A DNA stretch of 64,000 bases. Origin: Elsinoe ampelina (lineage: Eukaryota). The DNA lies in contig ML992515.1 in assembly GCA_010093995.1 (NCBI GenBank), positions 363,533-427,532 of the forward strand. Direction: 5' to 3'. Under the pieces are notes generated by a model, which saw only the letters and a list, made by a program, of their open reading frames with translations, searched no databases and had not been told where the DNA came from. This document shows positions 29,195-51,317 of the stretch, piece after piece (within the stretch, counting starts at the first letter, position 1; every line of letters starts with the position of its first letter). Made by a program: the position numbers and the translations under genes.

Positions 29195-29380
29195 CGATCA
29201 CCTATTTCGGTACAATCTCGATAGTATCTGTAGACGTAGCAACCCAAAAAAGAAAAACACCAGTATCCTTACCTACTCGTGCTCAAGCCATCCGGTGACT
29301 TCGTCTGCCATCTCAAATGTCATCTGTGCTTCTGCTGAACATCGCCCCATTTGCGAGTGTCGTATGAGTCTCAAGCATCG

Positions 29381-29491
29381 GTCAATTGTCATGTATTCGG
29401 TGGTTCCGCGACCCAAAACTCACGTCCGACCCTTCAATACAACACACCCTTCGTACTCGGCACCTCCCCCTCCCTCTCCTTAACCCTACTC
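29381..29491 (-). pseudogene. HIS3: Displaced duplicate of the HIS3 3' end (last 18 codons + stop + part of 3' flank)
   Basis: 29434-29490 encodes [18 protein letters not shown] vs [18 protein letters not shown] at 49755-49811 (53/57 nt identical); flank catgtattc.gtg.ttcc and cacgtc.gacc.ttca also shared; same orientation as HIS3. Confidence 0.95.
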
Positions 29492-29989
29492 AACTCCAGT
29501 CCACAAGGAAAGCGGCTTCTGCTGTCGGGCTGACCACTCCGGACTGCATGAGCACCCTTTCTACCTTTGAGGTCCAAGCACAGAAGGGTAAAGGTAGAGC
29601 AGCGGAGTCTAGCCCCAGCGACTTTTACAAGGTTACGCCTCAGGGTCGGCGGGGTTCTCCAGGAGAATTCTCTAGGTGAAGGGCAGGTAGCGACCGCTAC
29701 TGGGAGGACAGTTCTCGCGGGTGATGCGCACCATGGCAGAGACCCAGAATGGAACGGATGTGCTTTGGCAGTGGGACAAGATCAAATGATAGCAAGAGGG
29801 GACAAGTTGGCTGATATGGAGCCTCCAAGCATGCTCGGAGACTTTTACGATAGACAGTATTGAAACCTTGACTAACATGTCGTGCAAGATCTGTTTCAGT
29901 GATTTTCTTACCCGTTCACGCCGCCCTGGTAGGTGTTTCATGTCGAACTACTAGAGATGGAAAGATTGCAGCTTGGGGCTTGTGTTGTT

Positions 29990-30218
29990 GAAGAAGTCGT
30001 ACTACCAGAATTTCACTGGGGAGATAGGTCATTGACTGCAGGTGAGGCATGCGGCCTGGTAGTATCCCTCGATGAAACTGCTAGAGGCAAAAGGAGAAGG
30101 TCCAGGTGGAGGTAGTAAAGCAGTGTAGAGCTGGTAAAGCCTACTAGGTAGTACAATCACAGGCAGACAAGATGAAGAAGGTCAAAGCTGGTGGTTTTCA
30201 AGAAATAGTACTGTACTA
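29990..30218 (-). repeat. Inverted copy of the CTGGTAGT-dyad minisatellite, continuing at 39776-39802 beyond the transposon
   Basis: aggcagacaagatgaagaaggtcaaagctg...gtacta|ccagatttcgagcagggggacggg matches the reverse complement of 20854-20930. Confidence 0.8.
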
Positions 30219-30399
30219 CAGGGCTTTTCAGTTCAAACGAGCCACCCCCAGGCTTGGCGCACGCTTTACTGACTTCTAAGCTACAAATTTTAGTAGCTAG
30301 AGGTCTAGATAGTATATAGTTATAAATTTGTTATTATTAACTAAAATTAAAGCTCAAATAAGATATAATAAAGATAGTATACCTTTACGTAAGTATATA

Positions 30400-32250
30400 A
30401 TAGCTAAAAAGTACTCTACTACTCTCCCTTACTACTAGCCGGCTTATAATAAGAGGCTTTTAAGAGCTACTTATAAGGCTAAAGAGGTAGTTAATACTTT
30501 ATAAGAGAAAGAGATAGTAGTAGAGTTATTACTAGTACTATTATAGTCTTCTTAGCGCTCTTCTAGCTCTCTTAAAGAGATTAATCTAGTTTAATAGAGG
30601 CCTTTAATACTATAACTATAAGCTAGCTAAACGCTAGTACCTTATCTAGTCCTTCTAAATATAGACTAAGCTCTTCTTAAGTATATTATAGCTAAAGGCA
30701 CTATAGCTTCTTTTACTACTAACTAGCTAAGGCCTTTAATTAAGTAACTACTACTAAGAAGGCCTTCTTTCTAGATAAGAGTAGTAGTAGTAGTAGTAGT
30801 AGAAGAGAAAGAGTTAAATAAGAAGCTAAAGTTAGTAGAGAAGATATTAAAGAAGAAAAGGAAATAGTTTATTAAGAAGGTAGCTACTTAAGAGAAGAAG
30901 AAGTAGAAGAAGAAGAAGAAGACTACTATAGAGGCTACTATAGCCTCTATAGTAGCCTCTATATAAATATCTCTATTATTACTTCTACTAGAGACGTAGG
31001 AGAATTACTTAAATAATTCCTTTACTAGTTACTTAGTAGATATAAAATTAATAGTAAAGCTTAGATTAAAGAAGGTAGCTCTAGATAAGTATACCTTTAA
31101 CTAGCTAGCTAAGATCTTATAGTCTTCTATATTAGATTAGGTAGTAAAGAAGGAATTAGCTAGCTTAGAGTATAATATTATTCTTCTTAAGGTTAATATA
31201 ATTACTTAGTATAGTAGCCTTAAAGAGATAACTACGTAGCCTTTACTATAGTATAGTTAGCTAACTTTAAGAACTTAACTAGTAAGCTAGAGGTATAGGC
31301 TCGAAATAAGTAACTACTATTAAAGGCTAGCCTAAGTATAGTAATAAAGAAATTAACTCTAGTACTATCCTTAGCTTAAGCCTCTTAGCTATAGCCTCTT
31401 TTAACTATACTAATCTCTTAATTAATAATAGTATTACCTTCTATACTATAAGCCTTTTCTACTCTCTTACTAGTATTAGCTTAACTATACTCTCTCTTCT
31501 CTTTATAGTCTTTTTAAGATACTATACCTTCTTAAGGCTATACCTTAGTAACTAGCTAACTATATAGTATATTAGTAGTAGTAAATAGTAATTAAGAGCT
31601 AGATTTAATATAGTATTAGAAGTATATAGATTAGACTTATATAAATTTTAGTAACGTATACTAGAGAACTATTAAGAGTAAGTACTATAAGCTAGATAAG
31701 GCTATAAGGCTTTAATAGAGCGCTATAGTAAGAAGTAATAGCTATAGTATTAATTAGCCTTCTCTAGTACTTATAATTACTCTTAATAGAAGTAGGTCTC
31801 TAAGAAGAGCTATCTTAGAGATCTTTATTAACTTACTATATCCTATACTACTAACTCTACTACTAGCCTATTTAGCTTTACTAGTACTAGTTAATACTAT
31901 TAATATTACTAATATATACTTAGAACTACTACGCTATATACTTCTCTAATTCTTACCTTCTTTAAGTAGTATAATTACTAACTTTAAGTAATTCTTACTT
32001 ATTAGTTCTAATACTAATCTAGTAGAAGTTTTAGCTAAATTCTTTAACTAGTTAAAAAGGAAAAAGGCCTTTAAAAGGTAAAAGGCTATACTTAATAATA
32101 TAGAGTTTAGATTAAAGAGTAAGAATTATAATATTAATAGCCTCTAAGGTATTAATCCCTCTTATTAGAGAGAGGAGTAGTACTTTAATAAAGGCCTCTT
32201 AGTATAGATAATTAGTAAGATAAGCTTCTTTAAGCGCTAGCGCCTTTAAT
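30400..32250 (+). pseudogene. RIP-degraded second (cargo) ORF inside the Tc1-like element, convergent with the transposase; limits approximate
   Basis: ~1.9 kb of TpA-saturated, coding-like sequence with a Glu-rich run (30840-30925) and a helical-looking segment (..VEVLAKFFN*LKRKKAF..); product not recognised. Confidence 0.4.
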
Positions 32251-33300
32251 AGTAATATTATACTACTTAGTAGACTAGATAGCCTTCTAAAATTAGTATA
32301 AGAAGAGATAGTAAAAAACTAAAATAGTAGTATAGAGTTTTTAATATCTCTTAGTACTAGTAGATATTAAAGCTAAGTTTAACCTTATAAGCCTTCTATC
32401 TCTTTATACTTATCTATTTATCTTATACTATATCTATAGCTTTTAAAATAGTTTCTAGCATCTTTACTATAGTATAACTAAACTACTAATACTAAGAAGT
32501 TCTAATATTTATTAAATTCTATAGCTAAATATTAGTACCTCTTTACCTATACTTTAAGTACTAAGAATAACTACTTAATAGAGTTAAAATCTAGTAAATA
32601 TAGTAGTAAGTACTTAAGGTAGCTTCTATATTTAATTATAAGCTCTTTTACTTTATTATAGTAATATATTAAGGTATTATCTATAACTAGAATTAAGCTA
32701 GCTAGTAGCTATAGTAGTACTAACTTCCTTAGCTACTAGATAAAGATATTTTTTATAATTAAGCTATAGTAGATAAGTACTCTATTAAAGTATCTATTTA
32801 TAGTAATTACTAGAAGTATATTCTAGCGCTTACTTTTTTACTTTAGCTAACTATTCGTATAGTTAATACTAATAAGTATCTATCTATATCTCCTCTATAT
32901 AGTATACTTATTATAAGCTAACTTATTAATATAAATAATACTTTTAACTAGCTAGCTCTTATAGTATATACTTTAATTATTTCTTAATATAGTATCTCTT
33001 TTTATAGCTACCTTCTTAGCTACCTTCCTTAACTACTTCTAGCGCTTAATTATTCTCTAGATAGTATTAATAGATACTAGTATAGTATAGATCTTAAAGA
33101 GAAAGTCCCTTACTTTATTAAGATAGGCTATAGGAATATTATTAAGGTATAGAATAACTTACTTAGAGTAGTATTAGTAGATAGTAGAGACTAGTAAGAG
33201 TAAGACTTATATCTTTAAGAGCTAGAGATAGTAGCCTTAAGTAGTAGTTAACTTTATTAAGAGAATAGAAAGTACTAAAGAACTTAATTAATAGCCTTAT

Positions 33301-33504
33301 TAATGCAAGATAGATACGAACTAGATTTAGTTAGGATATAGTTTAGATTAGTTATGTAATCTTAGTATTATAGCTTAGGCTTCTAGCTGCTTTACTCTTA
33401 ATATTATATGTACTTTATATACTAGCTTTTCTTCTTCTTCTTCTAAGTCTTAATATCTTAACGAATAGACATAATTAACTCCCTTACCTTACTAGTTATA
33501 ATTA
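33301..33504 (+). repeat. 5' LTR
   Basis: Direct repeat of 39289-39492; ends TA..TA are RIP products of TG..CA. Confidence 0.95.
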
Positions 33505-36500
33505 CTATATCGAGACTTTAAATAACTATAACTAAGCAATAGAGCTATTAAATTATCTAGTTATTCTACTACTTATATAACTACTAACTATTACTTATAA
33601 AGAATTAAAGAATTAAAGAAGAAGCTATTATAACTATAGTTCCTACGTATACTATAATAGATTCTCGCTGCCGCTATATAGGTTAATACTACGAACTTTA
33701 AAGATATAAGAAGAAGGTAATAAGTCGAGTTATAGACGACTCTTAAAGGAAGTAGACCGCTAGCTAAAACTTTTTAATATTCCCTTTATTACGCGTTAAC
33801 TTTTTATACTATTTTATTTATAACTAACTACGCTAAGTATAGCTCGCTCTAACTATAGTAAAGATAATTACTATATAAGTAAGATCTCTTTACTCTCTAC
33901 TAACAATAATAATAAACTAGTCTAGTTAGCCTATTACGACCTTATCTACCTTAGCGACACTAACCTTAAGAAGAGACTATAAGAGATAGATAAGATAACT
34001 ACTCTACGTAAGGCCTTTACCTTTATCGAGTTTACCTACGATAAATAGGTTACTATATATAACTTAGCGCGTACTAACGCTCTTAACCTATATAACTAGT
34101 TAGACAACACTCTAATAGAACTAGATACTACTAATAGCACTACTAATAATCTTACTATCTAAACTATACGCTACCTTATAGACATTAGTAAACTTAAGGC
34201 CGAACTAGCCTAGCTAAGAGCCGAGATAGAATATGCTATACTAGCTCTCTCTATATATAGTAATATATTATTTAAAAAGATACTAGACTTCGCTATCTTC
34301 TCTAGTAGTACTCTAGAATAGTTCGAGGTTTTTAAGCACTAGATAAAGAATAAGATACGTACTAATACTAACTATTTCTCTACTAAGGTAACCTAGTTTA
34401 CCTATCTCTACTCGCGCCTTTCTAGTAAAGTATATACTCTTATTATAGACTTCGCCGGTAATAACACTCTTAACGTCGAAGCTGCTCTTAGTATCTTAGC
34501 CTAGTGCTTTAAAGACTCTAACTGTAAGGCTACTACGCGCGCTTAGTTCGCTAGCCTCTTCTAGTATAATACCTCTTTTAACTCCTTTATTAGCGAATTT
34601 AATAAGTACGCTCTTCGCGCTAAGATTACTAAGGATAAATAGCTCTACTAGTTACGTTAGAAAATATCTAATAAACTACGTATTGCCCTTGTTAACTTTA
34701 ATACTAATAACCTTTCTACCTTTATTATAAAGGCCTATACTACTAACTATAATATCTAATAGAGCAACCTTATTACTAAGCGCACTTAGGCCTTACGCTC
34801 TAGCCTAGCTATAAGCTACGCTACTACGGCACTAATCTATGTGTCTTATTCTACTTCCGCGCCTACTGCTCTAGCTACCTTCTACCCTATTACTAGAGGA
34901 GCTCTATAGCTCTTCTATCTAGCTCTAATACTTACCTATTACGTATGTAGCAAGCCTAGCTATATCTCTACTAAGTATATAGCTAGCGCCTTAGAGAAGG
35001 CTACTTATACTACTATATGTCCTATACGTATTAGTGCTATAGAAGAGATATAATAGCTCTAGGATCGCTTAGCCGAATTAAGCAACTAAGTCGATACTAG
35101 TTTAGCTTACGAACTAGATCTAGTTTAGCCTTAGTTTAACCCCGAAATGGATTATAAGTCTACTAACCTATCTAGCTAGGGAAATAAGTAGCTAAAGAAC
35201 AAGTTCTATTCTCTAGTAGAATAAGGGTAATTCGAGATAGATCCGGAGGTATATAGTTATTAAATAGCGTCGTTAGCTACTACATCCCCGCTATTATAAC
35301 TTCTATTACTATTTACGACCCCTATAACCGCTCTTACACTATTACACTTTAAGCCTTTATTAACACTAGCGCGCTTATTAGCGCCGTAGTTAACTATAAC
35401 GTTCTTAATAAGCTAAAGAGTTTTAGCTGTCCGGTGGCACTAGCTAGCCCTATTTAGCTTTAGGCTTATAATAGTGTTCTAATAGAACAAGTTACTTATA
35501 GCGTCTCTCTTACTACTACCGTTTCTAGTAAGCTAAATAACCTTACTACCTTCCGTATTATAGATATTAGCTAATTCGATATTATCCTTAGCCTCGGATG
35601 GCTTAAGGCTAATAGAGCTACTATTAACTATAAGTATAGCTAAGTTATATATAAAGAAGAGTTTTCACTAATAGTCGTTAAGTAGGAGCTACTATAGCTA
35701 ATTAAAAGACTAGAATCTAGATCTAAGCCTAGCTTAGATCTAGGAATCTAGCTCGGTAAAGCTACTACTCTAGTTTAGAACTAGTTTAGTTCTAATCTAA
35801 CTCGCGAACTAGGTTCTAGCTTAGCTACTAAGATAGGACGAACTAGACTATATCGACTACTAGCTCTTAGGTCGAACTTTAAGCTAAATTAGGGAGAGTT
35901 TAAGCTAATCTCTTATAGTACTTAGCTAATGTATAAGTTCTCCTACGTACTTACCTACGTAAGTGACACTAAGTAAGAAGAGCTAACTATTGCTTTTATT
36001 AGCGCCGCTACCTTTGTATTAGTAGCTAAATACTAAAAGAACAAGGTGTTTATAATCTTAGTAAAGAATATTAAGGACTACTACTAGATAGCTTCTAAGC
36101 TAGAACTAGACCCTATAGTAGTTCTCCTAGAAGAGCTATAGGAGTTTACTAATATCTTCTCTAAAGAGTAATCTAATACGCTCCCTCTATATCGGCTAGA
36201 TTTCGACAATCGGATTACACTTAAGAATAGAGCTAAACTACTACGTACTAAACCTCTTTACTACCTATTACTAGAGGAGCTCGATATAGTAGAGCTATTT
36301 ATCCGTAAGTACCTTAATAAAGGCTTTATTACGCTAAGCTCGGCTAGCTATTCCTTGCCTATTCTCTTTGTTTATAAGCCTAGTAGCAGACTTTGCCTTT
36401 ACGTCGATTACTATAGCCTTAATAAGGTAACTAAGCGAGATATCTATCCTCTACCTCTTATTAAAGAAACACTTACGCGCGTAAGTAAAGCTAAATAGTT

Positions 36501-39288
36501 TAGTAAGATTAACATCTATTAAGCCTTCTACTACCTCTATAACTCTATTAATAGTAAAGACCTTACTATATTCTCTATACGCATAGGTAACTTTAAGTAG
36601 TTAGTAATACTATTTAGCCTTACTAACGCCTCTATAGTATAGTAGAGGTTTATAAATTATAACTTTATTAATATACTTAAGCGCTTTGTGTTAATCTATC
36701 TTAATAATATTCTTATCTATACCGACGGCACTTGCTAAAAGCATGCTAAGTATATTAAGCTAGTACTCTAATATCTCTACGATTTAGGCCTAAACGCTAA
36801 TATTAAGAAGAGCAAGTTCTACCTAATAGAAGTAAAGTATCTTAGTATTATTGTTAGTCGAGATAGAGTTAAGATAGATCTAAAGAAGGTCGAAGCTATA
36901 TAAGCCTAGAAATAACTAGCCTCTAGTAACACTACTTAGGTAAGAAGCTTTATTAGTTTCTATAGCTACTATCGCTACTTTATTAAGGAATTTAGCACTA
37001 TTACTAAGCTGTTAAATAACCTACTTAAGAAGAACGCTACGCTATAGAATAATAAGTATACTACTATATTTAACTATATAAAGTATACTATTACGAGTGT
37101 CTCTATCTTAGCGTACTTCGATTACTTAAAGTAAGTAGTCGTCGAAACTAACGCCTCTAACACTACTACCGCTAGGATTCTATTGTAATATAACAATTCT
37201 AACGTCCTCTAGCCCGTTACCTTCTTTAGTAAATCTATAAGTAAAGCCGAATATAACTATATAATCTACAATAAGGAGCTATTAGTAATTGTCTAAGCCT
37301 TTAAGGAATAGGCCCCTAAGCTTATAAGTACTTAATCTAATAAGGCTATTTACGTCCTTACTAACTACTAATCCTTAATGCATTTTATAAAGACTTAGAA
37401 GCTATTACGCCGCTAAGCGCGCTAGGCTCTTTACCTTACGTAGTTTAACTTTAAGATTATATATAGGCCTAGCGCTGCTAATAGTAAGGCTAATATACTT
37501 ATAAGGAGAAATAGAGATATACTACGTTTGAAGGAAGACCCTAATCTACGCTAGACGCTATTGCTATATAAAGTGCTAGATTAGCGCATTATCGACGAAC
37601 TAAATCTAGGTCGTATCTAAGCTAGATTACTAATCTAGGCTAAACTAAGATCTAGTTTAGCACCTATTTCGCCACCTATTTTGCCGCCTATTTCGGCTTA
37701 TAAGCTAGGCACCTATATAGTACCTATCTCCGCTATAGAAGAGCCTTTACCCCTTTTTAATAAAGTAGCTAAAGCTAACTTACGAGACTTTAACTTCGAG
37801 ACAGTTCGTAGCGTCTACTATATAATAGAAGCCTTCCTAAAGAGGAAATAGTTACTATTAACTAATGTTACAATTAAGAAGAGAATACTATACACTACTA
37901 GCCGATTAATTGTGCCTTTCTCTATAGCTATAAAAGTTATCTAAGGAGTCTATATATCGAAGAATTATACACATAGAGGGGCTACTAAGACGGCTACTAT
38001 AATTAAGTCTACTTTCTATATCCCTAGGTGTAATTCTAACGTTAAGAGGTTCGTCGCTAACTATTACAACTATAAGCGCTTAAAGGCTCGCTATAGCTTA
38101 CTAGCTAGCCCCCTATCGCTATTGCCTATTCTAGTTAGGCCCTAGCAATATATTACTATAGACTTCGTTACTAGCCTACCTCTAGTAGATAGCTATAACG
38201 TAGTACTATATGTTATTAATCGCTTATCTAAGGAACGACACTTAATCTCTTACTTCTAGAGAGAAGAAGAAACCTCTATATTCGAGACAGCTAAGCTATT
38301 ATTCTTCTATATATAGAAACTATATAGCCTACTAGATAGTATCACCTTAGATTGTAGCTCTTAGTTCGTTAGCGACGTATAGAAGAGACTCTACTAAATC
38401 CTAAAGATTACTACTAAACTATCTACTATAGGGTATCTATAGATAGACGGCTAATTAGAGGTTATAAATCGTAAGTTTAAGCGAGTTATTTGTTTATACG
38501 CTACACGCTTTAGTAATTAGACTCTTATTCTACTAGTTATAGAGTTCTCTACTAACGTTAACCTATTAGAGAGCACTAAGCTATTACTATTCGAGGTTAC
38601 TAGAGGATATAAGCTAAGGCTAAGCTTTTAACTCCCTTCCGATACACTATTAATAAGAGCTAAGCTAAATAAGATCGACATCCGTGCACTTGCTAAACAA
38701 CTAGAAGAAGCGCTAGCTATTACTAAAGCTAACCTCGCTATTGCCTAATTACGTATAGTAGAATAAGCTAATAAGTACTACTAGCTAATAGAGTTTAAGG
38801 TAGGTAATTTAGTATAGTTATTAACAAAGAACCTCTAGCTATATAGTAATCTAAAGCTACTACTAAAACACGTTAGTCTATATAAGATCCTTAAGAAGTA
38901 GTTACTATTAGTATATAAGCTAGATCTACTAGCTACGCTACAATAAATCTACCTTATATTCTATACTAATCTACTTACTAAGCATCTAAATAACTCTCTA
39001 CTAGGCTAAGCCTTTAAGGAACTACCTCCGATAGAAGTTAATAGTAAAGAGAAATACGAGGTAGACGACGTAGTTAATATACATATACTACATAGTAAAC
39101 TAGTTACTTATATAAGCTAGAAGAGCTATCCGGAGAATCTTATCTAGTGGCTAATTAACAATCTTAAAGGAGTAGCCGATATACTACGTAACTATCTAGA
39201 CTCTTATATAGATAAGCTAAGGCCGAAATAGATTAATAAATAATGTATAATAGTGTTTAAGAGTAAATACACTTAAGAGAGAAAGTAG

Positions 39289-39492
39289 TAATATAAGATA
39301 GATACAAACTAGATTTAGTTAGGATATAGTTTAGATTAGTTACGTAATCTCGGCATTGTAGCCCGGGCTTCCGGCCGCTCCGCCCTTAATATTACGTGTG
39401 CTTTATATACTAGCTTTTCTTCTTCTTCTTCTAAGTCTTAATATTTTAATAAATAGATATAATTAACTCTCTTACCTTACTAGTCGTAATTA
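39289..39492 (+). repeat. 3' LTR
   Basis: Direct repeat of 33301-33504; differences I checked are C/T or G/A transitions. Confidence 0.95.
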
Positions 39493-39839
39493 CTTATCCT
39501 CTAGATAGTAGAGTAAGTAACCTTAGTAGTACTATAGATAGTATAGTCTAAATAGCTTTTAGCTAGAAGAAACTCTATATTAGCTAATTTAGCTAGAGTA
39601 ATTTAATAGTTTACTATACTAGCTATTATATCTTTTTTTAGCTTTAAAAATCAAGTAATTAACGATAATTACAACTATAATCTATCTAGACTTCTAGCTA
39701 GCCAAATTTGGTAATGCAACGTCTTAAACGATCACGCCAAGCCTGGGGGTGGCTCGTTTGAACTAAAAAGCCCTGTACCAGATTTCGAGCAGGGGGGACG
39801 GGACCTCGGCTGCCGCCACATCAAACCAGAAATTTGTGA

Positions 39840-42248
39840 CGAATTCCACACACACCGCACGACAATTACTACCAGAGCAACCATGGTTTCGCAGAACTTC
39901 AGTCAGAGGTCGATCGGACGCTGGATGCTCTTCGAAGCTGGCGAAAGGCACTGTTGTACGACCAGCAAGCCATCGCGCGAGGTGCGGCGACCGACGAAGA
40001 GCGAGATGCCTTGATGATGGCGTCTGCAGCAATCCTGGAGAATCTGCAACAGGTCGCCCAGCAGATCCGGAGACTGGTCGACAAGAGCCACAATGGGACT
40101 AGACCAGGCACGGACATTGAGCAAAACCTGCAAGCTGGCATCGAGAAGAATCTCGAATATCATGAATTCGTCGCCCACAATATCGAACAGCTGGCTGAAG
40201 GAGAAACCGAGGCACAAAGGGCGCAGGACAGATTGCTCAACCATGTATCTTCACGTATTACTACTATGGAGGATCGTGAAGAACAAAACTTCGAATTACT
40301 GTCCAGTCGTATCGAGAACTACAGCACCAAAGTGCTCGACCAAGAAGACATCCAGCACCTCATCACATCATTGTATCAAAGTCATATCGCACCCGAACTC
40401 CAGAAAATGCATCAAAGCTACCGTAGTGCCATCACTAGACAGAATGCTGAGATCGGCGGCCCTGGCACTGGCATGGCAGACTATGAGACGATCAAACGAC
40501 AGCGTGATGAGCTGCAACAGACAGTCCGGGACTTCCAGAATATCGATGAAGAGGCGGCAACAAGCCAGCTCACTGGATTACGATTCGAACTGAACGAGTT
40601 GAAGCGTCAAAATGACATGTTGAAGCTCGAAGTTGCTCAGGCCAAAGAGCGAGCGGACGAGGCTGAAGCGGCGAATCAGAGACACAGTGCGGAATGGAGG
40701 AACATTCTGGACTTGCAAACACGCAAAGTGGACCGACTCGTTGACACGGAAAAGCGACAGGGGCACGAGATCAAATTACTCACAGACAAGAATACCAAGT
40801 ACCGGCAGAGCACCAGCGATCTTCACAAGGAATTAGAAAGAATCCGCAGCGAGCGTGAGGATCAACGAAGACAGAAGAACCACTACAAGGATATTCTTCG
40901 CAGGAACGGCCTACTAGAGGAGATGGATGAACCTGTGGATCTTGATGCTCCGCTCGTCGAAAGTGTTCCCACACCCACCAAGCGTGGAGCCACGTCTCCA
41001 GCCAGCTCGTTGAAAATAAAACGACAACGATCCGATACTTCGCTGCTTCTCAGGGAGGAAAGTCTCGCCACTAAGATTACCCAGCAACTTGCGGAGCGCT
41101 TTGGCATGCAGCAGATGGGATTCCAGCATCAGCAGCAACCATCAACTCTTGGGTACCAATTCGGTCAGAACACCTCGCCCGGCTTTGCTCAATTTGGTCA
41201 GAACACATCGGCGACCTCTCTCGGATTTAATCCAGGTATCCCAGGAAACCCTTTTGCGCCTCTCCCTGGTGTCGCTCAAGGTCAAGCAGGCACAAGCAAG
41301 CCATTCGGGAGCGTACCTGTCCCCGGTCCTACTACGGGTGCCTTCTCCAAGTGGCGTGACCATCAAGAGAAGTCCCAGCAAGATACACCAGTTCCTGAGT
41401 GGGGTACAATGGAGTCTGAACGTCAATTCGAATCACCTGTACCGCCGTCCGAAGCTGCTAGCGTGGATGATATCATCAGACCGTTCGTAGAGGGTACTCC
41501 AGGTGGGGGCACACCTCAGCAGAACACCTCACGCAAGGTCCTACCCCCTGCTCCTTCAGAGTATCCGCCAAGGTCGTTGTCACCAAAGAAATCTGCCCCG
41601 AATCTTGGTAACACTTTACCCTCAAGGAATCCCGCTACTACCAAACCAGTGAGGACGAATGCCCCGCTTCCTGCTGCCACCAACCCACCGTCACGTAGTC
41701 TGAGAAGCAGAGCCAGCATGCCCAGCGTTCAGCAGCCACCGGCGTCACCTCCACATCCTACCAGATACCATGTCACCGATGTCTTCATCAATGAGGAGTC
41801 CTGGATCAATGCTTCGGTCCCTAGCGACACGAACAAGAAACACATCCTCGACGTCAAGCAGGCAGCTTGGAATGGAACGCCGCTCGATACTTAGGCTCGC
41901 AAGAGCAATCGTTTGTTCATGGCTGTAAATAGGGGTACCAGATGCATGAACTCGATAAGCAAGGGGCCATGGTTGGGTGGTAAGGAATGGACGTACGAGC
42001 AGGCCATGAGTGGAGAGAAGTGCCCGCATGATGAAGTTACTACCAGATTATGTGTCTTCTCGCAAGACAAGGAGGTCGAAACGGCTGAAGACGTCGTCAA
42101 GCTAGGCGTTATTGGACTGCCGCAACGCGTGATGAGCAGGCCAGGGTCAACCAGGAGCGCGAGAATAACTACCAGAATTGATCCATCTGGTAGTTTTAGT
42201 GATAAGAAACCTGTGTTTTTAGAATCCGTGTCTGTGCCCCCCACCTGA
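39840..42248 (+). pseudogene. Family B copy B3, near full length, with in-frame premature stop at 41892-41894; start uncertain
   Basis: ORFs 39954-41894 and 41913-42248 are in the same frame (..PLDT*ARKSNRLFMAVNRGTRCMNS..) and align continuously with B2; frame open from 39840. Confidence 0.8.
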
Positions 42249-42254
42249 ATCGTT

Positions 42255-42590
42255 CCCCGGGTAGTTCTACGAGAGGAATACTACCAGGTCGCCTGGCTTA
42301 CCTTACTGAACTGTCTTTGTATCTACAACCTAGTAGTTTCGCGAGAAGAATACTACCAGACCGCATGGCTTATCTTAATGACCTACCTCCCTGCCTGAAA
42401 CCTAGTAGTATTATATTCTAGGTACTACTAGCTTTACTGCTTTACTGTCTCTACCTAAATCCTACTGTTTTACTTCTAGTAGTTTTACACGGAGAATACT
42501 ACTAGGTTGCCTAGCTTACCTTAGTGACCTGTCTCTATGCCTATAACCTAGTAGTACTACTTCTTAGGTACTACTAAGCTACATAGCTTA
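42255..42590 (+). repeat. CTGGTAGT-dyad minisatellite downstream of B3 (left part, increasingly RIP-mutated)
   Basis: gagaagaatactaccagaccgcatggcttatctt..cctccctgcctgaaacctagtagta matches 20814-20882; dyads with 14-nt spacers at 42258, 42330, 42402. Confidence 0.85.
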
Positions 42591-42899
42591 TTCTTGCTCC
42601 TAAAAATCCTAGGATAAGCTTAGTAATCTAGATAGCTACGCATACTAAAATCTACTAATATTAGTCTATTTTATGAATTATATATCTATTTCGTATCTAT
42701 TTAAGGCCGAACTAGTCTATACTATTAATCTATCTTAGTAGCTAAGCTAGACATCTATCTAGCACAACTTTAACTCTATCTTAGCTACGAACTAGACGCG
42801 AGCTAGATCGACACTTCTATAGCGCCGAGTCTATCTTAGCTATCTATCTAAGATTAATACGATCTCTAAGCCTTTTTTAAGGATAGAAGAATAATAGAT

Positions 42900-43860
42900 A
42901 GCATATATAGGCTTATACCTTACCTCTTACGTAGCGCTATTAGCTAGAGATATATAAATTAGTATAATACTAGGCACGTCGAGCTTCTAATTACTCTCTA
43001 AGATAGAGGCTAGCTAAGGACCCTTACTAACGAGATGCTTAATAATCTTAAATGCCTTATAGTAGATAAGCCTAATATGTACTTAGACAAGTATATAGAG
43101 TACCTTAAGCTTAAATAGGGCGTAATAGTGTTATAATCTACTATTAGTTATAGCCTCCTTTCTCGAGATTTGCCACTTAAGGTAATAGGTTAAATTACTA
43201 GCTAGAGAGACAAGGAATTATATAGTACTTAGCATAAGAATATTAAGCACTATTAGAGTAACTAGCTCGTCTTCGTTAACGAGGCTATAGTAAGCGAAAG
43301 GTGCTTAATAAGGCGCTAAGGTTGTACTATATAAGGCGTGCTAGTAGCGGATTAGATAGACTAGTATATTAGTAAGCGCTTCTTAGTACTTCTAGCTATT
43401 ACTAAGGAGAAGTAGTTAAAGGATCCTATAGTCTTCTAAGGCTTAATTACTGCCGAGATCTTCGAGGATTAGTTTTAGAACTACCTAATACTATAGTATA
43501 TACCTTTTCTAGGCCTATAGTTAGTAGTAGTATTAGATAATTACTTAATTCACTAGTGTAAAGTAAGTAAAATCTAATATAAATAAGTGCTAAGCTAAGA
43601 CTTTAGGTACTTATATATATTACTCGTAGTTATAGAGTTACTATTATTTTCCTACTAGCCTATTTACTAGATCTTAATCTAATAGAGAAGAGCTTCTACC
43701 TATTAAAGTAGTAGATGTACTATTATCGCTACCTTACGCTAGAGTAGCTATTACTAGAGTATTATAGCGATTTTGTTAACTTTATATAAGAGGCAGCTAA
43801 TAGGTTTAGTAATAGCGTAGATTAGAAAGCTATCTTTAGAAGCTATATAGTAAATGTGTA
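42900..43860 (+). pseudogene. Tc1/IS630-family DDE transposase relic; limits approximate
   Basis: RIP versions of motifs LVFVNEA (~43266), VVVLDNYLIH (~43523), FLLAYLLDLNLIEKSF (~43649); intron-like gtaagt..ctaag..tttag 43563-43606. Confidence 0.85.
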
Positions 43861-43984
43861 ATATTAATAGAAGGACTATATAAGCTTGTTATTCTCTATA
43901 TTAGTCTTAATATTAGCCTTATTATTACGCTATATACCGTTCTATAGTTCTCTATTAATAGGTAGTAAATACTTACGTATATTA

Positions 43985-44431
43985 CGAAAATCCTAAAGCC
44001 TAGAAACACTTAGAAATAGTAGCGATTACTACATTTCTAGCGTTTCTAGTATTTCTAGCTTACTCTATGTCCTAGCTATTACTAGCGCTCGCTAGCGAGG
44101 CTAGCGCTCGCTAGCCGTTCTACTTGTTCTAGCTGTTCTAGCTAAAATTTGAAAAAAAACTCTATATATAATATAGTTTAGAATTAAACTTAAAGCTTTT
44201 TAGAATAACAAATTTTGTATAGTAGAAAAAGGAATTACTTATAGGTTATATACTTACCTACTTAGCTATAGAACATATATATTTTACAATAAGAAACAAA
44301 TATATATAATAGTTATTATAAAAATTTAACCTTAAAGAAAAAAATTCTCTTTGCACTAAAAAACTAGCGCTACGTTTCTAGTATTTCTAGTCGTTTTACT
44401 CGTTCTAGCCGTTCTAGCCTTAGGATTTTTA
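43985..44431. mobile_element. MITE-like non-autonomous element nested in the second transposon
   Basis: TA-flanked inverted ends cgaaaatcctaaagcctagaa / ttctagccttaggattttta; internal short repeats tttctag/gttctagc and duplicated ctagcgctcgctagc. Confidence 0.6.
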
Positions 44432-46209
44432 TAACATATAAATCTCTAGAGAGATAACTAAATAAAACTACAAAGGCTAAATTATAGTATAGCCTCTTTA
44501 ATATTGTTCTTTAATGCTCTTTAGAGCAGTTTTATATTCTAGTAGCTACGCTCGAGGTCTATAAAGGTAGTACTAAGCTATACTTAGTAAGCTAGATTTT
44601 TATACTTAAGAAACTTAAAAAACTAATAGAGGTAGGCTAGAGAGTTAAGTCCCTTAGTACACGAGAAGAATCTATTACTTTAAGAGTATAGTAATCTTAA
44701 ACTATATTAAGCTAAATAATAAGAGTTAGTAGAGAGGCTAGTAAAGGTCGGAAGAGGTACTATAGAACTATAGCTATTTATAAAGAACTATTAGTAGAGA
44801 GAGAAGAGATAAAGAGAGTATAGAGAAGCTCTAGTAGAAGAGAAAAAGAACTAGCCTTTAATACCTCGGCGTTAGTTATGTTACTTCTAAATCTAGTAAT
44901 AGCTCTTCTAAATTTGCTTAATTATGTACTTTAAAGACTACTAAATAGTCGAATTACTAGCGTAGAGGTCCTTACGCTATATAAAGGCTACGTCCTTATT
45001 AATAGAATAGTATATAATAGCCTTAGCGTTATCTATAGAGAAGTAAGCTACTTAATACTTATTTAGATAGTATACGCTAGTGTAACGCTAAAAACTCCTT
45101 ATATCGAGCTAGAATTAATCTTAGAAGTACGTCTTAGCCTAATAATTATATACTAAGTTAGTATATATCTCCCTAAGGTCGTTCTAGCTTAATTAAGTAT
45201 CTAGTAGCACGTACTTAGTCGGTAGAGAAGGCGCTAGCTACTAGAATTATAATGCCTCTAAAGAAGTGCTTAGCGTAACTAGTATAGCTATTACCTCTAC
45301 TACTAGCGTGCTCTATAACTCCTTAATAATAAGCTTAAGAAACTAGACTCTAATTCTACTATAGAATTATAGCTGCTACTTAAGCCTATTATAGGAAGAA
45401 TTAAGAGCGTTAAAATCCTTAAAGACTACGTATAGTTTAATAGTATTTATATAGTTAAAGAGCTTAGTATTACGCTTCTTAAACTGTATATCGACTTCTC
45501 TTTAGCTAGTAATCTAGTTAACGAGGTAGTATAAATCTAGCTAGAGACTAAATAGACTCTTACTAGTATTACTAGTACTCTCTACGTTGCTAATTATATC
45601 TCTTTTAAGGTTAGTAATCCACCTTAAAAGGAAATTAACAACTCGTAGCTACGAGCTAGCTAGTAGTAAAGCCTTCTACTAGCTTAACACCTATCGACTC
45701 CTCGGCGATAATAACACTATACTATAAGTACTAGAGGCCTTAGAAATAGAGCGCTAGGTACCTTTCTAACCTTCTAAAGCCCCTTATAGTGTTCGTTTAT
45801 TAGTATTACTATCGTATAGTACTTAGAGAGGTTGTCGGGGGTTACTCTTAGTATAAGCGTAGGTCCTTAGACTAGTAGCACTTTTAGCCCCTTTTATTAG
45901 CTACTTCGGTAGAGTCTTCTTAATAGCCTTTATAACTAGCGCCTTCTCCTTCTTACTTATTTCTATAGCGGCAGCTTAAGGCTTACTTCTCTTATAACAA
46001 GTTAGCAGTTTTAAACAGATAGGCTTAGGCTTAAAGGTTAAAGGTAGCTTACTAGCTATTAAGTAGCTAGAGTAATATAAGTTACTCTAAGAGTGTTTAA
46101 TAGGCTTCTCTAATGCTAGAGGCTCTCGAAATTAAACGTTTTAAGCACTTAACTAAGTATTACTATTGCTTAGCAGAGTAGGTGTTTACTCTAAGTTTAA
46201 GAGCAATAA

Positions 46210-46525
46210 TACTTGCCCTTGTCTGCTGTCCCGTCACCTTTGGCCATTCTATCAGAGAGACCACCAGCCCGCATGGGTTTCCTTGTAGCCTGTCTCCCTG
46301 CCCAAATCCTGGTAGTAATACCTCTCAGGTACTACCAGCTCTTTGCAGCTTCACCTTGTCTGTCTGCGATCTGCTCCTTCAAGTCTGATAGTATTCGGCC
46401 GCAAGATCCTACCAACTGTGCTCATGAGTCCGGTCTGCCTCTCCTGGATCTCCGAGTGTGCACTGGAAGGTACTGACAGATTGCATTCTCCACTAGGCCC
46501 AACCGTTTCTCCTTCTACATGATCT
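46210..46525 (+). repeat. CTGGTAGT-dyad minisatellite (right part) plus the array-terminal segment
   Basis: Perfect dyad 46309-46338; cgcaagatcctaccaactgtgctcatgagtccggtctgcc..ttctccttctacatgat matches 21670-21793. Confidence 0.85.
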
Positions 46526-47113
46526 GTGAAGTGGAAAAGAGAGTGAAAGTCGAATGTAAGGAAGCGGTCTTGCAATCAAGGACTTAGTCTTCATGTGGAA
46601 TGACAGACGAGTAAGTAGTCAAATCCCATGTCAGATTCAGTCCCACTCGTCCAATTCCCCCATAGATCCGAGGAACTCCCCTCCCTGTCTTGAGTCCACG
46701 AGCCGGTCACGATGATTGTAGAAGGGGAGCCAATCTTCTCCAGCAGGAGCAAAGGAATCACGAGAGATGCATAGCATCGTGTTACAGCCCGGGTTTACTC
46801 TGAGGAGGGACTGGGAACGTATGAGAAGTACAACACCATCAGAAGGAACCCCGATCTGTAGACAGCCGTCTGAAGATTCCAGAGCCGCATTTGCCGAACC
46901 TGCATGACCGTCACGTGCGACTCCAGCATCCTGGTAACAAAAATCCTGGCAGCGGCACACGGAAGACATCCGCCTTCCCGGACCATACAGCGCGACCGAG
47001 TGGGGCAAAACCGCCGACGGTGAGTGGTAGACAGAGCTATCACTCTTTCATTTTCACATCACCTCCCTACTTTGTCAATATCCACAACCATTATACGGGC
47101 TTCACTGGCAAGC

Positions 47114-48454
47114 ATGAGCACCCACACGAGATTCACCGAGAATGATGGCCAAGCCTATGCGTATGAATTCCACGACTACACTGCTCTGGGGGCTCCTTCT
47201 GGTGCGACTTGGGCTAGCCAGCGTGCTGGCCTTCTTGAATATGAGAGAAAGAAGGTCTTGAAGGAAGGGTGGAGAGCCATGTATGACTGGCTTGTGAGGA
47301 CACTGGCAGACCACGAGAAGCAGAAAAGAGGTGACTCACTAGTCATCGACCACCACGTCCTCTTGTCGCTGGAAGAAGAGGCCTTGTGCAGATCTCGGAT
47401 CCTCCATGCTGCTGCAAAGGTCGCGGAACAGAGCGCCTTCAACGGCGGCAGCATTCCCACGACAGATATCAACAAAGCCACTGGCCAGATGACAATCAAA
47501 AGCTCTCTACAGCCTTCAAAGCGCAGCGTTGCGCTCGATCAGACGAGCGGCAGCGCAGGCGAACACAACATAACGGATGCGGTTTTGATTGAGAGCTTGA
47601 ACACGCAGAAGGCACGACTCAAGATCCATGGCTTCAAGGAAGAGATCTCAATGCAGTCCAGTAGGATTCAGCACATGCTGACGGTTCAACGCGAGAGGCA
47701 TCAGAGTCTGTTCGACGTCATGATCGCCGCACTTCTTGCTGCATTCGCCGCCGAGCAAGCTGGAGCCACGTTCCAGAAGGCTTTGAGCGACTGGTACATC
47801 AAAGAGGTTCAAGCGGCGGCGCTGAGTGGCCAACCATGTGATGGACGCAAGGTCGCCTTCCATGAAGAAGTGCGTGGGAAATCCGGCTCGGCCAACGCTG
47901 GTGCAAAGACCGGAGGCGAGGAAACAGACTATCTGGAAGATAATGGTTATTACGAGGCTCTGGAGGATTCGAGGGAGTTCGAGACCAGAATCACGACTAT
48001 GGTGAATGTACCCATGAACCTGCCGACCCGGGAAAGGCGTCAGCAGGTGCTGGCTCGTATTCAGCAGCTGTTCCGCAGTTCAACTCCAGCTGTTGAAGCA
48101 CCACCACCTCCTCCTCCTCCTCCAGAGCCGACACCGCAAGAGCGATACATCGCCAGGAGGAAAGCGTGGATGGAGCAACACAGGAGGAAGCCGATCGACT
48201 TCGACACGCCTGTCAAAGCCGAAGACAGGCTCCCACCCCGCTCTCCCCTTAATTTCAAAGGCGGGAGGCACCCTATCCAAGACCCATGGGAGCGTTTTTT
48301 GTGGGACAACTTTGACGACATCACCGGCGGTCCCATCATCAAGCCGCATCGGACCAAGGAGGAAATCGCCGAGGATATAGCGGGCGTGAAGCAGGCCTAC
48401 TACGACTCCCAGGCCGCGCACCGCTTCCGCATGAGGCACCAGTTCGGGCTGTGA
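47114..48454 (+). CDS. Orphan hypothetical protein (446 aa from first ATG), helical with poly-Pro linker
   Basis: Long intact ORF with coding-like composition; no recognisable motif. Confidence 0.65.
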   Translation: MSTHTRFTENDGQAYAYEFHDYTALGAPSGATWASQRAGLLEYERKKVLKEGWRAMYDWLVRTLADHEKQKRGDSLVIDHHVLLSLEEEALCRSRILHAAAKVAEQSAFNGGSIPTTDINKATGQMTIKSSLQPSKRSVALDQTSGSAGEHNITDAVLIESLNTQKARLKIHGFKEEISMQSSRIQHMLTVQRERHQSLFDVMIAALLAAFAAEQAGATFQKALSDWYIKEVQAAALSGQPCDGRKVAFHEEVRGKSGSANAGAKTGGEETDYLEDNGYYEALEDSREFETRITTMVNVPMNLPTRERRQQVLARIQQLFRSSTPAVEAPPPPPPPPEPTPQERYIARRKAWMEQHRRKPIDFDTPVKAEDRLPPRSPLNFKGGRHPIQDPWERFLWDNFDDITGGPIIKPHRTKEEIAEDIAGVKQAYYDSQAAHRFRMRHQFGL

Positions 48455-49754
48455 GGCGTGGAGGAAGAGTGGAGTGAGCTCTAGTCTGCATAGGAGCAGT
48501 AGATGAAAAGTGAATGTAGTTATGGCCTTGCTCTTGCATCGAATCCAGGCATCTGATGTCAAACGTCTCTTCCAGGACCACCTTCGTGCGCTGCTGACAG
48601 CCGGGAATTACCACCCGTAACGATGACGCGCTGTATTTCCCACGCCATAGCGCCGAACCACGTGGTATGCTAGTTGACGATGCGATTGAGGCGTTCCAGG
48701 TGGCCCCTCAGTTGGGGCTGGTCGTGCGCGGTGCAGGATGGTGTAGGATGATGTGGGAGATACTACCACTTACGCAGCTAGTTGTAGTATGAAGCCTTGT
48801 GGCTACGCGAAGCCTTCTCGACATGGGAGACTGATTTCGATGCGATGCGCAGACATCCCCAGCAGAAGTACCAGGTGCTTAGCATGTGGTAGTACTTGAT
48901 TGCTGGCCTCGCCGGGAATTTTCAGTCATCGTCAACATTTCAAAGACCAGAGTAGAAGATCGGTGCAGAAGATTCCAAGCAGATACTACCAGGTGCGTAG
49001 TATGTAGTAGTGTCAGATCGCTGGCCTCGCCGGAAGATGTCATCTATGGTCATCGTCCTCAAGATTGCAGCAGCACATCCCCAACAGATACAACCAGACA
49101 AGATGGAGTGGATGCAGATGGGCAGGTCTGCATCAGACCTCTTTGCTGGTGTGATGGTGATCCCTACCGGGAGAAAAGCTGAATGTACTACCAGTACCGT
49201 AGTCCTTCGTGTAGGACTTTGCACGAGCGTTGAGAAGTGCACCACCTGGCAGGTATTCAAGCAAGGGATACAAGCGCCCTGGAGCAGTCAAGCGTCCTGT
49301 CAGCCTTGAGAAATCCATTACGAGCGATGTCATATTCGCTTCAGTGACATCTTCGCCTCTAGAGGTGGCAAACGGGCACAAGCGTCGGATGCCAACCCAT
49401 TGCCAATTCACAGCTAGTCCAGAACAAAGGACTCGGGCCAGTGTCGAGGTAACCAATTGTCATTTCGGATCAACTGCCAGGTCTGACCATCCTGGTCGGA
49501 ACAGGGTGGTGGTATCTGGGAGCTGTCAAGGGTGCAAAACCTGGGATCGAGCAGGCACTGATCACAAGGAGCAAGGAGGTGGAAGTGAAGCCCGATGTAG
49601 CAGAATGCAAAGCCGGATAACAAGTCACACGTTCCAGATCAAATTTCCTGATGTGACCGCGTAGGGATTGGCCAATCGGCATGTATTCAGTGATTCCTGC
49701 GAACCATCAGGCCGGCTATACACTGCAATCGATACAAGGCGCACGTCAGACCTT

Positions 49755-50447
49755 TCAGTACAACACCCCCTTCGTACTCGGCACCTCCCCCTCCCTCCCC
49801 TTGACCCTACTCGTAGCCATCCTCGTCGCCACCGCCAACGCCTTGAACGCACTCTCCGCCCTATGATGATCATTATCCCCTCTTATACAATCCACATGCA
49901 TCGTCACCCCGGCCCCCTGACTGAAGCTCTGCAGACAATGCGGTATCATCTCACAGCTCAAATCCCCCAGCTTCTCCCTCTTCAACCCCAACTGCGCAAC
50001 GCAGAACGGCCGATTACTGATATCCACCACCGCCCTCGACAACGCCTCGTCCAGCGGCGCATACGCATACCCAAATCTCGCAATCCCAGCCGTCGACCCC
50101 AGCGCCGTCTTGAACGCCTGCCCGAGAGCAATGAACGTGTCCTCCGCCGAGTGGTGGTCGTCGATGTGCAAGTCGCCTTTGCAGACGAGCTGGAGGGACC
50201 AGCCGGAGTGCTTGGCCATGGCGTGGAGCATGTGGTCGAGGAAGCCTATGCCGGTGTCTATCGAGATGGACTGCGAGGCGGAGGATTGTGAGGCGTGGGA
50301 TTTGGTGCCATTGGCTGTGGAGGGAGAGGTGGAGTCGAGGGAGGGGAGGGGGGAGAGGGCGCCGCCGTCGAGGTTGAGGGTGAGGACGATTTTGGTTTCG
50401 TTGGTGATGCGTTGCAGCGTTGTGCTGCGGGCGGGGAGGTCGGCCAT
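49755..50447 (-). CDS. HIS3: Imidazoleglycerol-phosphate dehydratase
   Basis: [60 protein letters not shown] signatures; ATG at 50447. Confidence 0.98.
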
Positions 50448-50497
50448 GTTGTGGAGTTTGAGATGGGTGGTGTCGAGCAATCGGGCGTGGTGGTTGA

Positions 50498-50503
50498 GAG
50501 TCA
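50498..50503 (-). promoter_or_regulatory. Possible Gcn4/CpcA cross-pathway control element (TGACTC) ~50 bp upstream of HIS3
   Basis: GAGTCA on + strand in the short HIS3/RPC19 divergent intergenic region; HIS3 is a classic Gcn4 target, but a 6-mer can occur by chance. Confidence 0.3.
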
Positions 50504-50670
50504 GGTCGAGATAAACTTTCTTGAATGTCCGTGCTTGGAGATTCGGCGCCGAGAGATTTGCGGAACAGATCCGCGATAAGATCATCTCAAGGTTTTTGCC
50601 CGCATTTTCATTGGCGGCATCAGGTCGAAGTGCATATTTTGGTCATCTGAAGGTCGAGTCTGCAGTGAAG

Positions 50671-51224
50671 ATGTCGGACACGGAGATGAGAGACGCAAAT
50701 GCTGGTGCAGAGGATAATGCATCGGTGGCGGACCGACCCAGCGAGAAGAATCGCATTCGAGTGGTGAGAATGGTTTAGTCGAAGCTGCATTCATAGTCTG
50801 ATATCAAACAGCTGCCTGGATCGACAGACACGGCTGCTTCATTCGAGTTTGAGAAGGAAGACCACACATTGGGCAATGCCCTCCGCTATATCATCATGAA
50901 GAAGTATGCATCTCTGCCGATTTCGCCTTCGATCACCAGTGAACTGACACCACGATAGCCCGAACGTCGAGTTCTGCGGCTACTCAATACCGCATCCTTC
51001 AGAAGAGCGCATGAATCTGCGTATCCAAACTTGGGGTAAGGCTTTCCCAAACTTACGGCCTTCGTCCGCACTGCTAACCCCTTCCAGATGATGTTAGCGT
51101 ATACGATGTGCTAGAACAAGGCCTTCAAGATCTCGCAGATCTGTGTGATGTGGTCATTGAGAAGTTCACGGAGTCAAGGGACGAGTATGAAGCTGCCAAC
51201 CCAAGGGCTGAGGTAGCGGCATGA
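50671..51224 (+). CDS. RPC19: RNA polymerase I/III shared subunit AC19 (RPAC2), three introns
   Basis: Spliced exons give [51 protein letters not shown] introns with ctga/ctaac branch sites. Confidence 0.93.
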
Positions 51225-51317
51225 TTGTTGGAAACGCTGGGGATGCAGTCGGAGTTGCAGGGTTCTTGACGATGATTTTGCAATTGCAGGCGTTTCCTAG
51301 AGTCTGTACATGATACC

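Follow-up and report, generated by a model that had tools for sequence, protein, structure and literature searches.

How does a housekeeping gene come to possess its own 3' end twice, in the same orientation and 20 kb apart? The question is raised by HIS3, the gene for imidazoleglycerol-phosphate dehydratase, in a stretch of 64,000 nucleotides (nt) from Elsinoe ampelina (assembly GCA_010093995.1, contig ML992515.1, positions 363,533 to 427,532), hereafter referred to as the window. This is nuclear DNA from a filamentous ascomycete, with a GC content of 50-58% and two blocks at 24-38% GC. A preliminary description of it had proposed that the segment between the two HIS3 ends entered as a gene-end-replacing element. 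We found the arrangement to be a known kind of scar in a new setting, the mechanism behind it being unproven. Tentatively, and with somewhat less than even confidence, we read the locus as the relic of nuclease-triggered gene-end swapping at HIS3.

HIS3 and its duplicated 3' end

The working gene, the two copies of its end and the four coding positions at which these differ (copy A/copy B) are as follows:

49758-50447, minus strand: HIS3 coding sequence, a single exon of 230 codons plus stop (49755-49757)
49667-49812, minus strand: repeat copy A, i.e. the last 18 HIS3 codons (49758-49811), the stop codon and 3' untranslated region (UTR), delimited by blastn and alignment
29377-29491, minus strand: repeat copy B, the displaced HIS3 tail, with 18 codons (29437-29490), stop codon (29434-29436) and ~57 nt of UTR
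49803: C/T, GTC/GTT, synonymous
49798: G/A, GGG/GAG, glycine to glutamate
49767: G/T, GGG/GGT, synonymous
49758: C/T, TAC/TAT, synonymous

The open reading frame (ORF) at 49758-50642 on the minus strand matched the Pfam family IGPD (PF00475, E = 2.4e-59), and the annotated protein of 230 aa has an exact match in the public protein collection; its 90%-identity cluster includes proteins of Elsinoe batatas (one residue different), E. australis and E. fawcettii. RNA contigs from two sequencing runs span 49664/49666 to 50472/50475 with 0 differences, i.e. HIS3 is expressed with tail A. As the preliminary description had stated, the tail of the gene (last 18 codons, stop codon and 3' flank) recurs in direct orientation at about 29.4 kb, and this was confirmed by both blastn and tblastn. 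The two copies are imperfect and have lengths of 146 nt (A) and 115 nt (B). They are covered by two blastn matches, namely 49742-49812 with 29421-29491 (71 nt, 91.5% identity, E = 1.4e-23) and 49667-49706 with 29377-29415 (40 nt, 80% identity, E = 0.006), while tblastn placed the last 18 HIS3 residues at 29490-29437 with 17 out of 18 identical (E = 2e-5). Over the coding part and the stop, 4 out of 57 positions differ, three of them synonymously and one exchanging glycine for glutamate, which is identical to the earlier count, and the stop codon is preserved in both copies. In the 3' UTR 10 out of 57 aligned positions differ, and another 31 gap columns represent nucleotides absent from B relative to A.

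At the gene-internal border (29491/49812) the homology is lost from one base to the next, in agreement with the abrupt end at 29491 reported previously, and on the UTR side it fades at about 29377/49667. The latter border lies, in copy A, within 3 nt of the ends of two RNA contigs, which is a hint only, as contigs cannot fix the end of an RNA. An independent Logan contig from the probable source run (run X1, record 8, 14,928 nt) spans 46141-59999 with 0 differences, and the junction between HIS3, tail A and the insert is thus not peculiar to this assembly. A CNNNG motif (CTACG), which resembles the cleavage preference of the GIY-YIG enzyme I-TevI, ends exactly at the homology border. By chance this is expected at about one position in eight, and the motif was given no weight.

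A GIY-YIG-like gene next to the displaced tail

Beside copy B, on its far side from HIS3, the following were identified:

26219-29194, plus strand: ORF of 991 codons that faces the displaced tail in convergent orientation and encodes a nuclease-like protein with a predicted GIY-YIG fold
27992-28640, plus strand: its predicted GIY-YIG-like catalytic domain, with the strand EIY at construct residues 58-60, an insertion of ~126 aa, and then GYT, R205, H209, H212, S215, E255 and N272

The ORF is uninterrupted and has kept all residues that are conserved in its family, and its stop is separated from the end of copy B by 182 nt and from the relic stop codon by 239 nt. Its product has a long disordered N-terminus and a C-terminal coiled coil. 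The public gene model comprises the last 374 codons only (28070-29191; P0012, corresponding to residues 618-991), whereby the first catalytic strand (P-x-I-Y) is cut off; with the best relative, P0013, the alignment begins as early as residue 535 of the 991-aa protein.

An AlphaFold2 model of residues 535-864, built on an alignment of 49 sequences (with construct numbering starting at 27821), reached a predicted local distance difference test score of 85 and a predicted template modeling score of 0.79. When this domain model was compared with 48,161 PDB representatives using VIA-align, the sole match with a Z of at least 8 was the catalytic domain of I-TevI (1ln0_A; Z 8.1, root-mean-square deviation 2.0 Å, 87 out of 92 residues). 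Further GIY-YIG enzymes that aligned to it were T4 EndoII (Z 5.5), the PD-T4-3 restriction enzyme (Z 5.3), UvrC (Z 4.0) and Eco29kI (Z 3.9), and among the best 18 matches all those other than GIY-YIG were situated on the C-terminal helix. Residues conserved throughout the 49 sequences of the family are Y60 (in the P-x-I-Y strand), G197, R205, H209, H212, S215, E255 (49/49) and N272. Their spacing in the fungal family and in I-TevI, respectively, is 8 and 8 (G to R), 4 and 4 (R to H), 50 and 48 (R to E) and 17 and 15 (E to N), where the I-TevI positions were counted by hand on the T4 sequence; the invariants of the T4 alignment are Y17, G19, S42, E75 and N90. The family differs from I-TevI in the ~126 aa inserted between the GIY and YIG strands. 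Weak pointers came from Foldseek against viral models, where nothing reached E ≤0.001 and 17 of the best 50 matches were named GIY-YIG or intron-associated endonucleases, and from Atlas leads at 0.81-0.82 (Eco29kI, T5orf172 and GIY-YIG). Judging from the predicted structure together with the motifs, the 991-codon ORF very probably belongs to the GIY-YIG fold.

Other searches with this protein and its relatives were negative. The model of the 374-aa product is dominated by a long helix and gave nothing with Foldseek against PDB and coiled coils only with VIA-align, while a second fold search, in a database without GIY-YIG chains, returned helix matches only. No domain above threshold was found by Pfam in 29 relatives, and NCBIfam gave no match; a profile search of PDB gave coiled-coil noise only, and a single-sequence search of PDB no match.

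By means of phmmer against 1.84 billion representatives, 49 relatives were found at E ≤0.001, eight of them at ≤1e-10, while a search with the family alignment returned two proteins only. The family is found in Ascomycota, is uncharacterized and lacks a Pfam model. In the literature searched we found no description of it in fungi or of a nuclear GIY-YIG homing element, the matches concerning mitochondrial or Penelope-like elements. Additional loci were picked from metagenome contigs by a degenerate DNA motif scan, yielding 25 loci (L003-L027) with flanks of up to 2 kb. The family hidden Markov model (HMM) matched 24 of these (E 1e-88 to 1e-7), with ORFs from 459 to >843 aa; two of the loci are identical and three nearly so. 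The domain is broken up over several frames or pieces in 7 out of the 24 family loci, and in one (L027, 1-2663) no other gene separates the family gene from a (CCCTAA)n telomere repeat, ~330 nt away, with which the contig ends. Such broken copies and a telomere-adjacent copy would be behavior typical of selfish or fast-turnover genes. Four loci (L014, L015, L016 and L021) have a neighboring orphan ORF in common, in convergent orientation to the nuclease gene.

Proposed gene-end swapping and its alternatives

If the locus is a relic of nuclease-triggered gene-end swapping, HIS3 and the GIY-YIG gene would originally have been situated tail to tail, ~240 nt apart, a layout corresponding to either a free-standing homing endonuclease gene or one unit of the type known from WHO elements and mitochondrial mORFs, i.e. 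an endonuclease gene joined to a host 3' part. HIS3 would then have suffered a double-strand break 18 codons ahead of its stop, and the repair would have copied in a segment carrying a HIS3 tail of its own, 3' UTR included (copy A), as well as ~7 kb of passenger DNA, including the two orphan genes P0063 and X that are described below. The tail present until then (copy B) would have been pushed downstream along with its nuclease gene. Transposons would later have enlarged the insert to 20 kb, and repeat-induced point mutation (RIP) would then have degraded them. What we infer here is thus a nuclease that would have cut HIS3, a break that would have caused the insertion, and past mobility. In WHO terms, tail B and the GIY-YIG gene would constitute the older unit, and tail A together with P0063 and X the newer one. 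One point is hard to dismiss, namely that a homing-type fold in the gene that would have been the tail-to-tail neighbor of HIS3 is hard to accept as chance.

The HIS3 scar can be likened to those of WHO elements and mORFs, since it consists of a working gene, a replacement tail, an insert and an old tail starting from the same codon. This architecture is also the part of the originally proposed gene-end-replacing element that still stands; an integrase, a Starship captain or a nuclease inside 29.5-49.7 kb, on the other hand, was not found. Nuclear gene-end-swapping elements are known from a few budding yeasts only, namely the WHO elements, in which incoming DNA replaces the 3' part of FBA1 and the old part is stranded downstream. 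Their authors class them, next to inteins and homing introns, as a third and rare category and state that the known nuclear homing endonucleases of eukaryotes are all LAGLIDADG (10.64898/2026.08.13.744650). As in the WHO elements at this aldolase gene in Torulaspora and Lachancea, a nuclear protein-coding gene is kept intact by an incoming 3' part, the old 3' part lies downstream and starts at the same point, an endonuclease-type gene is found directly beside a host-gene 3' part (here the predicted GIY-YIG-fold ORF, 182 nt from copy B), and older units and relics accumulate and decay. The locus is unlike WHO in having a predicted GIY-YIG fold instead of LAGLIDADG with a C-terminal, HO-related zinc finger, in the replacement of 18 codons instead of half the gene, and in its 20-kb insert with passenger genes and transposons; furthermore, the host is a filamentous Dothideomycete. 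Membership of the WHO family proper was rejected, as the ORF scans of the window gave no Pfam match to LAGLIDADG or zinc-finger domains and the predicted fold is GIY-YIG.

Three other systems invite comparison. Among mitochondrial mORFs, C-terminal gene hybrids are described for atp6 of Allomyces and for atp6, atp9, cox2 and nad3 of Glomus; like HIS3 they have a carboxy-terminal duplication, an inserted tail in frame and a displaced native tail, the Glomus atp9 case uses a GIY-YIG endonuclease, and the divergence of the tails is read as foreign origin (PMC3630166). The seg genes of phage T4 are similar in that a GIY-YIG gene is situated between or behind conserved genes and not in an intron, which matches the inferred tail-to-tail layout at HIS3 (240 nt). 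Their endonucleases cut a neighboring gene, and the genes spread by co-conversion. The genes segA, segF and segG are annotated as free-standing GIY-YIG genes in AF158101. Sequence-level similarity to them is lacking, and unlike them the Elsinoe protein is 991 aa long, with a disordered N-terminus, a 126-aa insertion between GIY and YIG and a C-terminal coiled coil, and is encoded in a eukaryotic nucleus. The Starships of Pezizomycotina, lastly, share the large cargo-carrying insert with flanking direct repeats in a filamentous ascomycete. However, they require a DUF3435 tyrosine-recombinase captain and have direct repeats of 2-16 bp (PMC11162782), whereas no captain was found here in ORFs of at least 75 aa, the repeats are imperfect and 115/146 nt long, and the gene end is restored; Starship identity was consequently rejected.

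A number of points weigh against gene-end swapping and are the reason why it is held tentatively. The nuclease gene is situated outside the repeat-bracketed insert, beyond the relic, while in WHO elements the relic and the new tail enclose it. The same contrast applies to mORFs, which as described are mitochondrial, ~1 kb long and carry the endonuclease ORF between the tails, as opposed to a nuclear locus of 20 kb with the nuclease outside the bracket (PMC3630166). The GIY-YIG gene could only belong to an older unit, whose own relic is missing. No third HIS3 tail is found in the window, the best Smith-Waterman scores elsewhere being 22-29 compared to 22-33 for 15 shuffled queries; the earlier suggestion that the block at 15.8-29.4 kb is an older resident of the same site is thus not supported, as no third tail occurs at its far end. 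Within 13-49.7 kb, none of the 123 ORFs of at least 75 aa matched a Pfam family of any kind, and in particular no tyrosine or serine recombinase, DUF3435 captain, transposase or nuclease was identified. A six-frame HMM search found no GIY-YIG remnant in 29492-49666, the sole domain match being at 27833-28951.

The tails themselves speak against it as well. It had been proposed from their mostly synonymous differences that both were once functional alleles, and this argument proved statistically weak. Three synonymous changes out of four have a p of ~0.07 on the assumption of a neutral copy that received all the changes, and of ~0.2 when synonymous changes in the working copy are also allowed, and the divergence of coding sequence versus UTR (4/57 versus 10/57) gives a Fisher p of 0.15; the synonymous bias is thus not significant. 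At the protein level the HIS3 tail is invariant among seven orthologues except for one Ser/Ala site, and the glycine to glutamate change of the displaced tail falls on a residue that is invariant in 7/7 Elsinoe-type HIS3 proteins, which would fit decay of copy B rather than a second working allele. The fold assignment has to be seen against the caution that a VIA-align Z near 8 can reflect a common arrangement, and against three negative searches: Foldseek found nothing in PDB for the domain model, 0/49 family members match Pfam even at E up to 10, and hhalign gave a probability of 0.06% against a five-sequence T4 GIY-YIG alignment. As regards the family, Pfam analysis of 40 flanking or partial ORFs of at least 100 aa at the metagenome loci gave no match above threshold for the 39 from family loci, the sole match coming from the non-family locus. 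The 16 loci that were examined for direct repeats of the tail type showed none, their flanks being too short to reveal a 20-kb bracket. Adjacency to a housekeeping gene, as at HIS3, is clearly not the rule for the family, as judged from these loci. The search for empty-site alleles yielded six sequencing runs containing window sequence (two probable source runs and four labeled as another organism), and only carriers of the block were found among the runs compared. In 90%-identity clusters all six block proteins found are singletons, but so are all three flanking controls found (out of 10 tried), which makes this test uninformative on absence in relatives. Finally, the event is old, with tails 7-18% diverged and nested long terminal repeats (LTRs) 14% diverged, and there is no sign of present activity.

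Nearly as likely is a one-off duplication-insertion in which a nuclease has no role, produced by template switching or by break-induced copying followed by end joining, and this would explain everything except the neighbor. In such an accident ~7 kb of accessory DNA would have been inserted, with a return 146 nt upstream of the exit duplicating the tail, and the GIY-YIG gene would be a mere resident of an island rich in orphans and transposons. Because HIS3 is needed, only a self-healing product could have survived. The presence of exactly two tail copies, the lack of a mobility gene in the insert, differences compatible with one neutral and one constrained copy (p ~0.2), the relic change at an invariant residue, a 13-50 kb region consisting entirely of orphans and repeats, and family loci elsewhere that are not beside housekeeping genes all agree with it. 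It would have to leave to chance, however, that the immediate ancestral neighbor of HIS3 comes from a one-to-few-copy homing-fold family, for which we estimate ~1-2%, or perhaps 20% if any suggestive gene class in such a region is counted. Furthermore, the limits of the duplicated piece, a codon boundary on one side and roughly the mRNA 3' end on the other, are not arbitrary points, which again is a hint only. Phage-like elements and those resembling integrative and conjugative elements integrate by a single crossover at the ends of tRNA genes, and in a comparable, Campbell-type integration a circle with a 146-nt HIS3 3' fragment (attP-like or plain homology) would have entered, its recombinase having been lost or host recombination having done the work. 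This would account for direct repeats of the whole homology region around the insert, for the sharp gene-internal border and for tails that differ as if from two lineages. It is decidedly improbable, given that no tyrosine or serine recombinase or captain was found in the ORFs of 13-49.7 kb and that 146 nt at ~87-91% identity, which recombines poorly by homology, is a poor substrate. Starships too, in the account cited above, need their captain and have much shorter repeats (2-16 bp; PMC11162782).

Two further explanations do without a 20-kb insertion at HIS3 or question the second tail as such. Copy B might be a 5'-truncated retro-copy of HIS3 mRNA that landed 20 kb downstream, as suggested by a homology that involves no more of the transcript than its 3'-terminal 146 nt and stops within ~3 nt of two RNA contig ends. 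Against this, neither a poly(A) remnant nor a target-site duplication is seen by copy B at 29360-29380, nor a plus-strand T-run at 29340-29380, and landing in the same orientation within 20 kb and abutting the next gene has an estimated chance of ~1e-3 in a genome of tens of Mb; we regard this as very improbable, and a processed retro-copy was rejected. Still less credible is an assembly artefact at 29.4 kb. The confirmation by a read contig covers the HIS3-side junction and not the one at 29.4 kb, but 14 aligned positions and 31 gap columns distinguish the copies, which is unlike a collapsed or duplicated pile of reads, the other junction is confirmed by the independent contig of the source run, and the ORFs flanking both sides are annotated public proteins on one contig of 653,217 bp.

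A broader version of gene-end swapping, in which the Pfam-less family would provide the nuclease for selfish elements of a hitherto undescribed nuclear class in filamentous ascomycetes, and in which two successive homing events at HIS3, each replacing the last 18 codons, would make it the first GIY-YIG counterpart of WHO, seems rather unlikely to us. Should gene-end swapping as such be true, it would be extended to another nuclease family, host gene and fungal class, and a widespread ascomycete protein family without any annotation would obtain its first functional handle. Even as a one-off accident, the locus illustrates how 20 kb of DNA can be inserted close to the 3' end of an essential gene without its loss, and the GIY-YIG-like family, with its broken copies and telomere copy, is a lead in its own right.

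The insert and its surroundings

The segment between the tails and the block beyond the displaced tail contain the following:

29492-49666: segment bracketed by the tail copies, 20.2 kb, or ~7 kb without RIP-degraded transposons
30217-39777: DNA transposon shell, a nest of ~9.5 kb bounded by 43-nt terminal inverted repeats that are 98% complementary, with TA on both sides
33298-33506 and 39286-39494: LTRs, 86% alike, of a RIP-degraded Ty3/gypsy retrotransposon inside the shell (RIP indices 2.16 and 0.15)
40014-42245, plus strand: orphan coiled-coil gene X, annotated as 626 aa to 41891, with an in-frame stop at 41892-41894
42600-46200: second RIP-degraded repeat block, GC 30-34% (RIP indices 2.14 and 0.21)
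47114-48454, plus strand: orphan gene P0063 (446 aa), the gene nearest to the working HIS3 tail and convergent with HIS3, its exact protein forming a singleton cluster in the public collection
22049-23167, minus strand: X' (P0001, 373 aa), an intact paralogue of X
23538-25700, plus strand: Y (P0064, 720 aa), a coiled-coil orphan with its exact protein in the public collection

The two low-GC blocks have a RIP pattern, with TpA/ApT indices of 2.16 and 2.14 and (CpA+TpG)/(ApC+GpT) indices of 0.15 and 0.21, respectively. The Ty3/gypsy element gave Pfam matches to RNase H and integrase once its stops were read as X, while the block at 42600-46200 is multi-copy in the source genome, with a Logan word depth 4-11 times that of its flanks in run X1. 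The remaining ~7 kb of the insert is of ordinary composition and holds the two annotated orphan genes. For P0063, which has low RNA cover in one run, no match was found in Pfam, NCBIfam or Atlas, nothing below E 0.29 in a PDB sequence search, and a probability of 0.19% when aligned to the GIY-YIG family with hhalign. Gene X looks recently truncated, since RNA contigs spanning 40641-42226 run unspliced through its in-frame stop and the frame beyond it (41895-42245) still encodes the C-terminal domain kept by X'; the C-x-x-C motif in that part is gone.

X and X' are 32% identical over 329 aa (blastp, E 6e-26); downstream of the stop of X the identity is 59% over 76 aa. A search of 5.8 billion proteins for homologues of X' matched X' alone, and no homologues of X, Y or P0063 were found in the metagenome flanks. 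The N-terminal region of Y resembles Y' at 17008-17664 on the minus strand (blastp, 30% over 146 aa, E 1e-8). Units of ~146 nt, each holding a small palindrome (CTGGTAGT...ACTACCAG), form short tandem arrays at 14350-14530, 20800-21880, 42257-42580 and 46237-46526, and occur inverted at 30040-30190. The arrays adjoin the 3' ends of X and X' as well as the borders of the RIP-degraded blocks, and Rfam identified no family in the window, these units included. The paralogous orphans (X and X') and the 146-nt repeat arrays are thereby shared by both blocks, which would fit related units arriving in succession.

Three of the runs other than the source (X3, X4 and X5) consist of spliced RNA contigs from a near-identical genome, 99-100% identical to the window with 0-2 differences, and show X and P0063 to be expressed; parts left uncovered in such runs are no evidence of absence. 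As these runs carry the label of another organism, the fungus or a near-identical strain is present in those samples.

Farther from HIS3, an 18-nt unit is repeated about seven times at 18485-18628 in the ORF at 18432-20057, giving the hexapeptide I-Y-H-I-R-L near the start of a coiled-coil orphan of 542 codons. Five tandem ORFs on the same strand occupy 5979-12741, between the orphan island and a GDSL-lipase gene. DUF7730 was identified in three of the five, one of which also matched 2EXR weakly, while a fourth resembles one of them by BLAST only. On the other side of the locus, just upstream of HIS3 (50762-51917), RNA contigs reveal two intron-rich genes on opposite strands, with three GT..AG introns on the plus strand and four CT..AC introns, i.e. 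on the minus strand, and these intron joints offer a way to correct the gene models.

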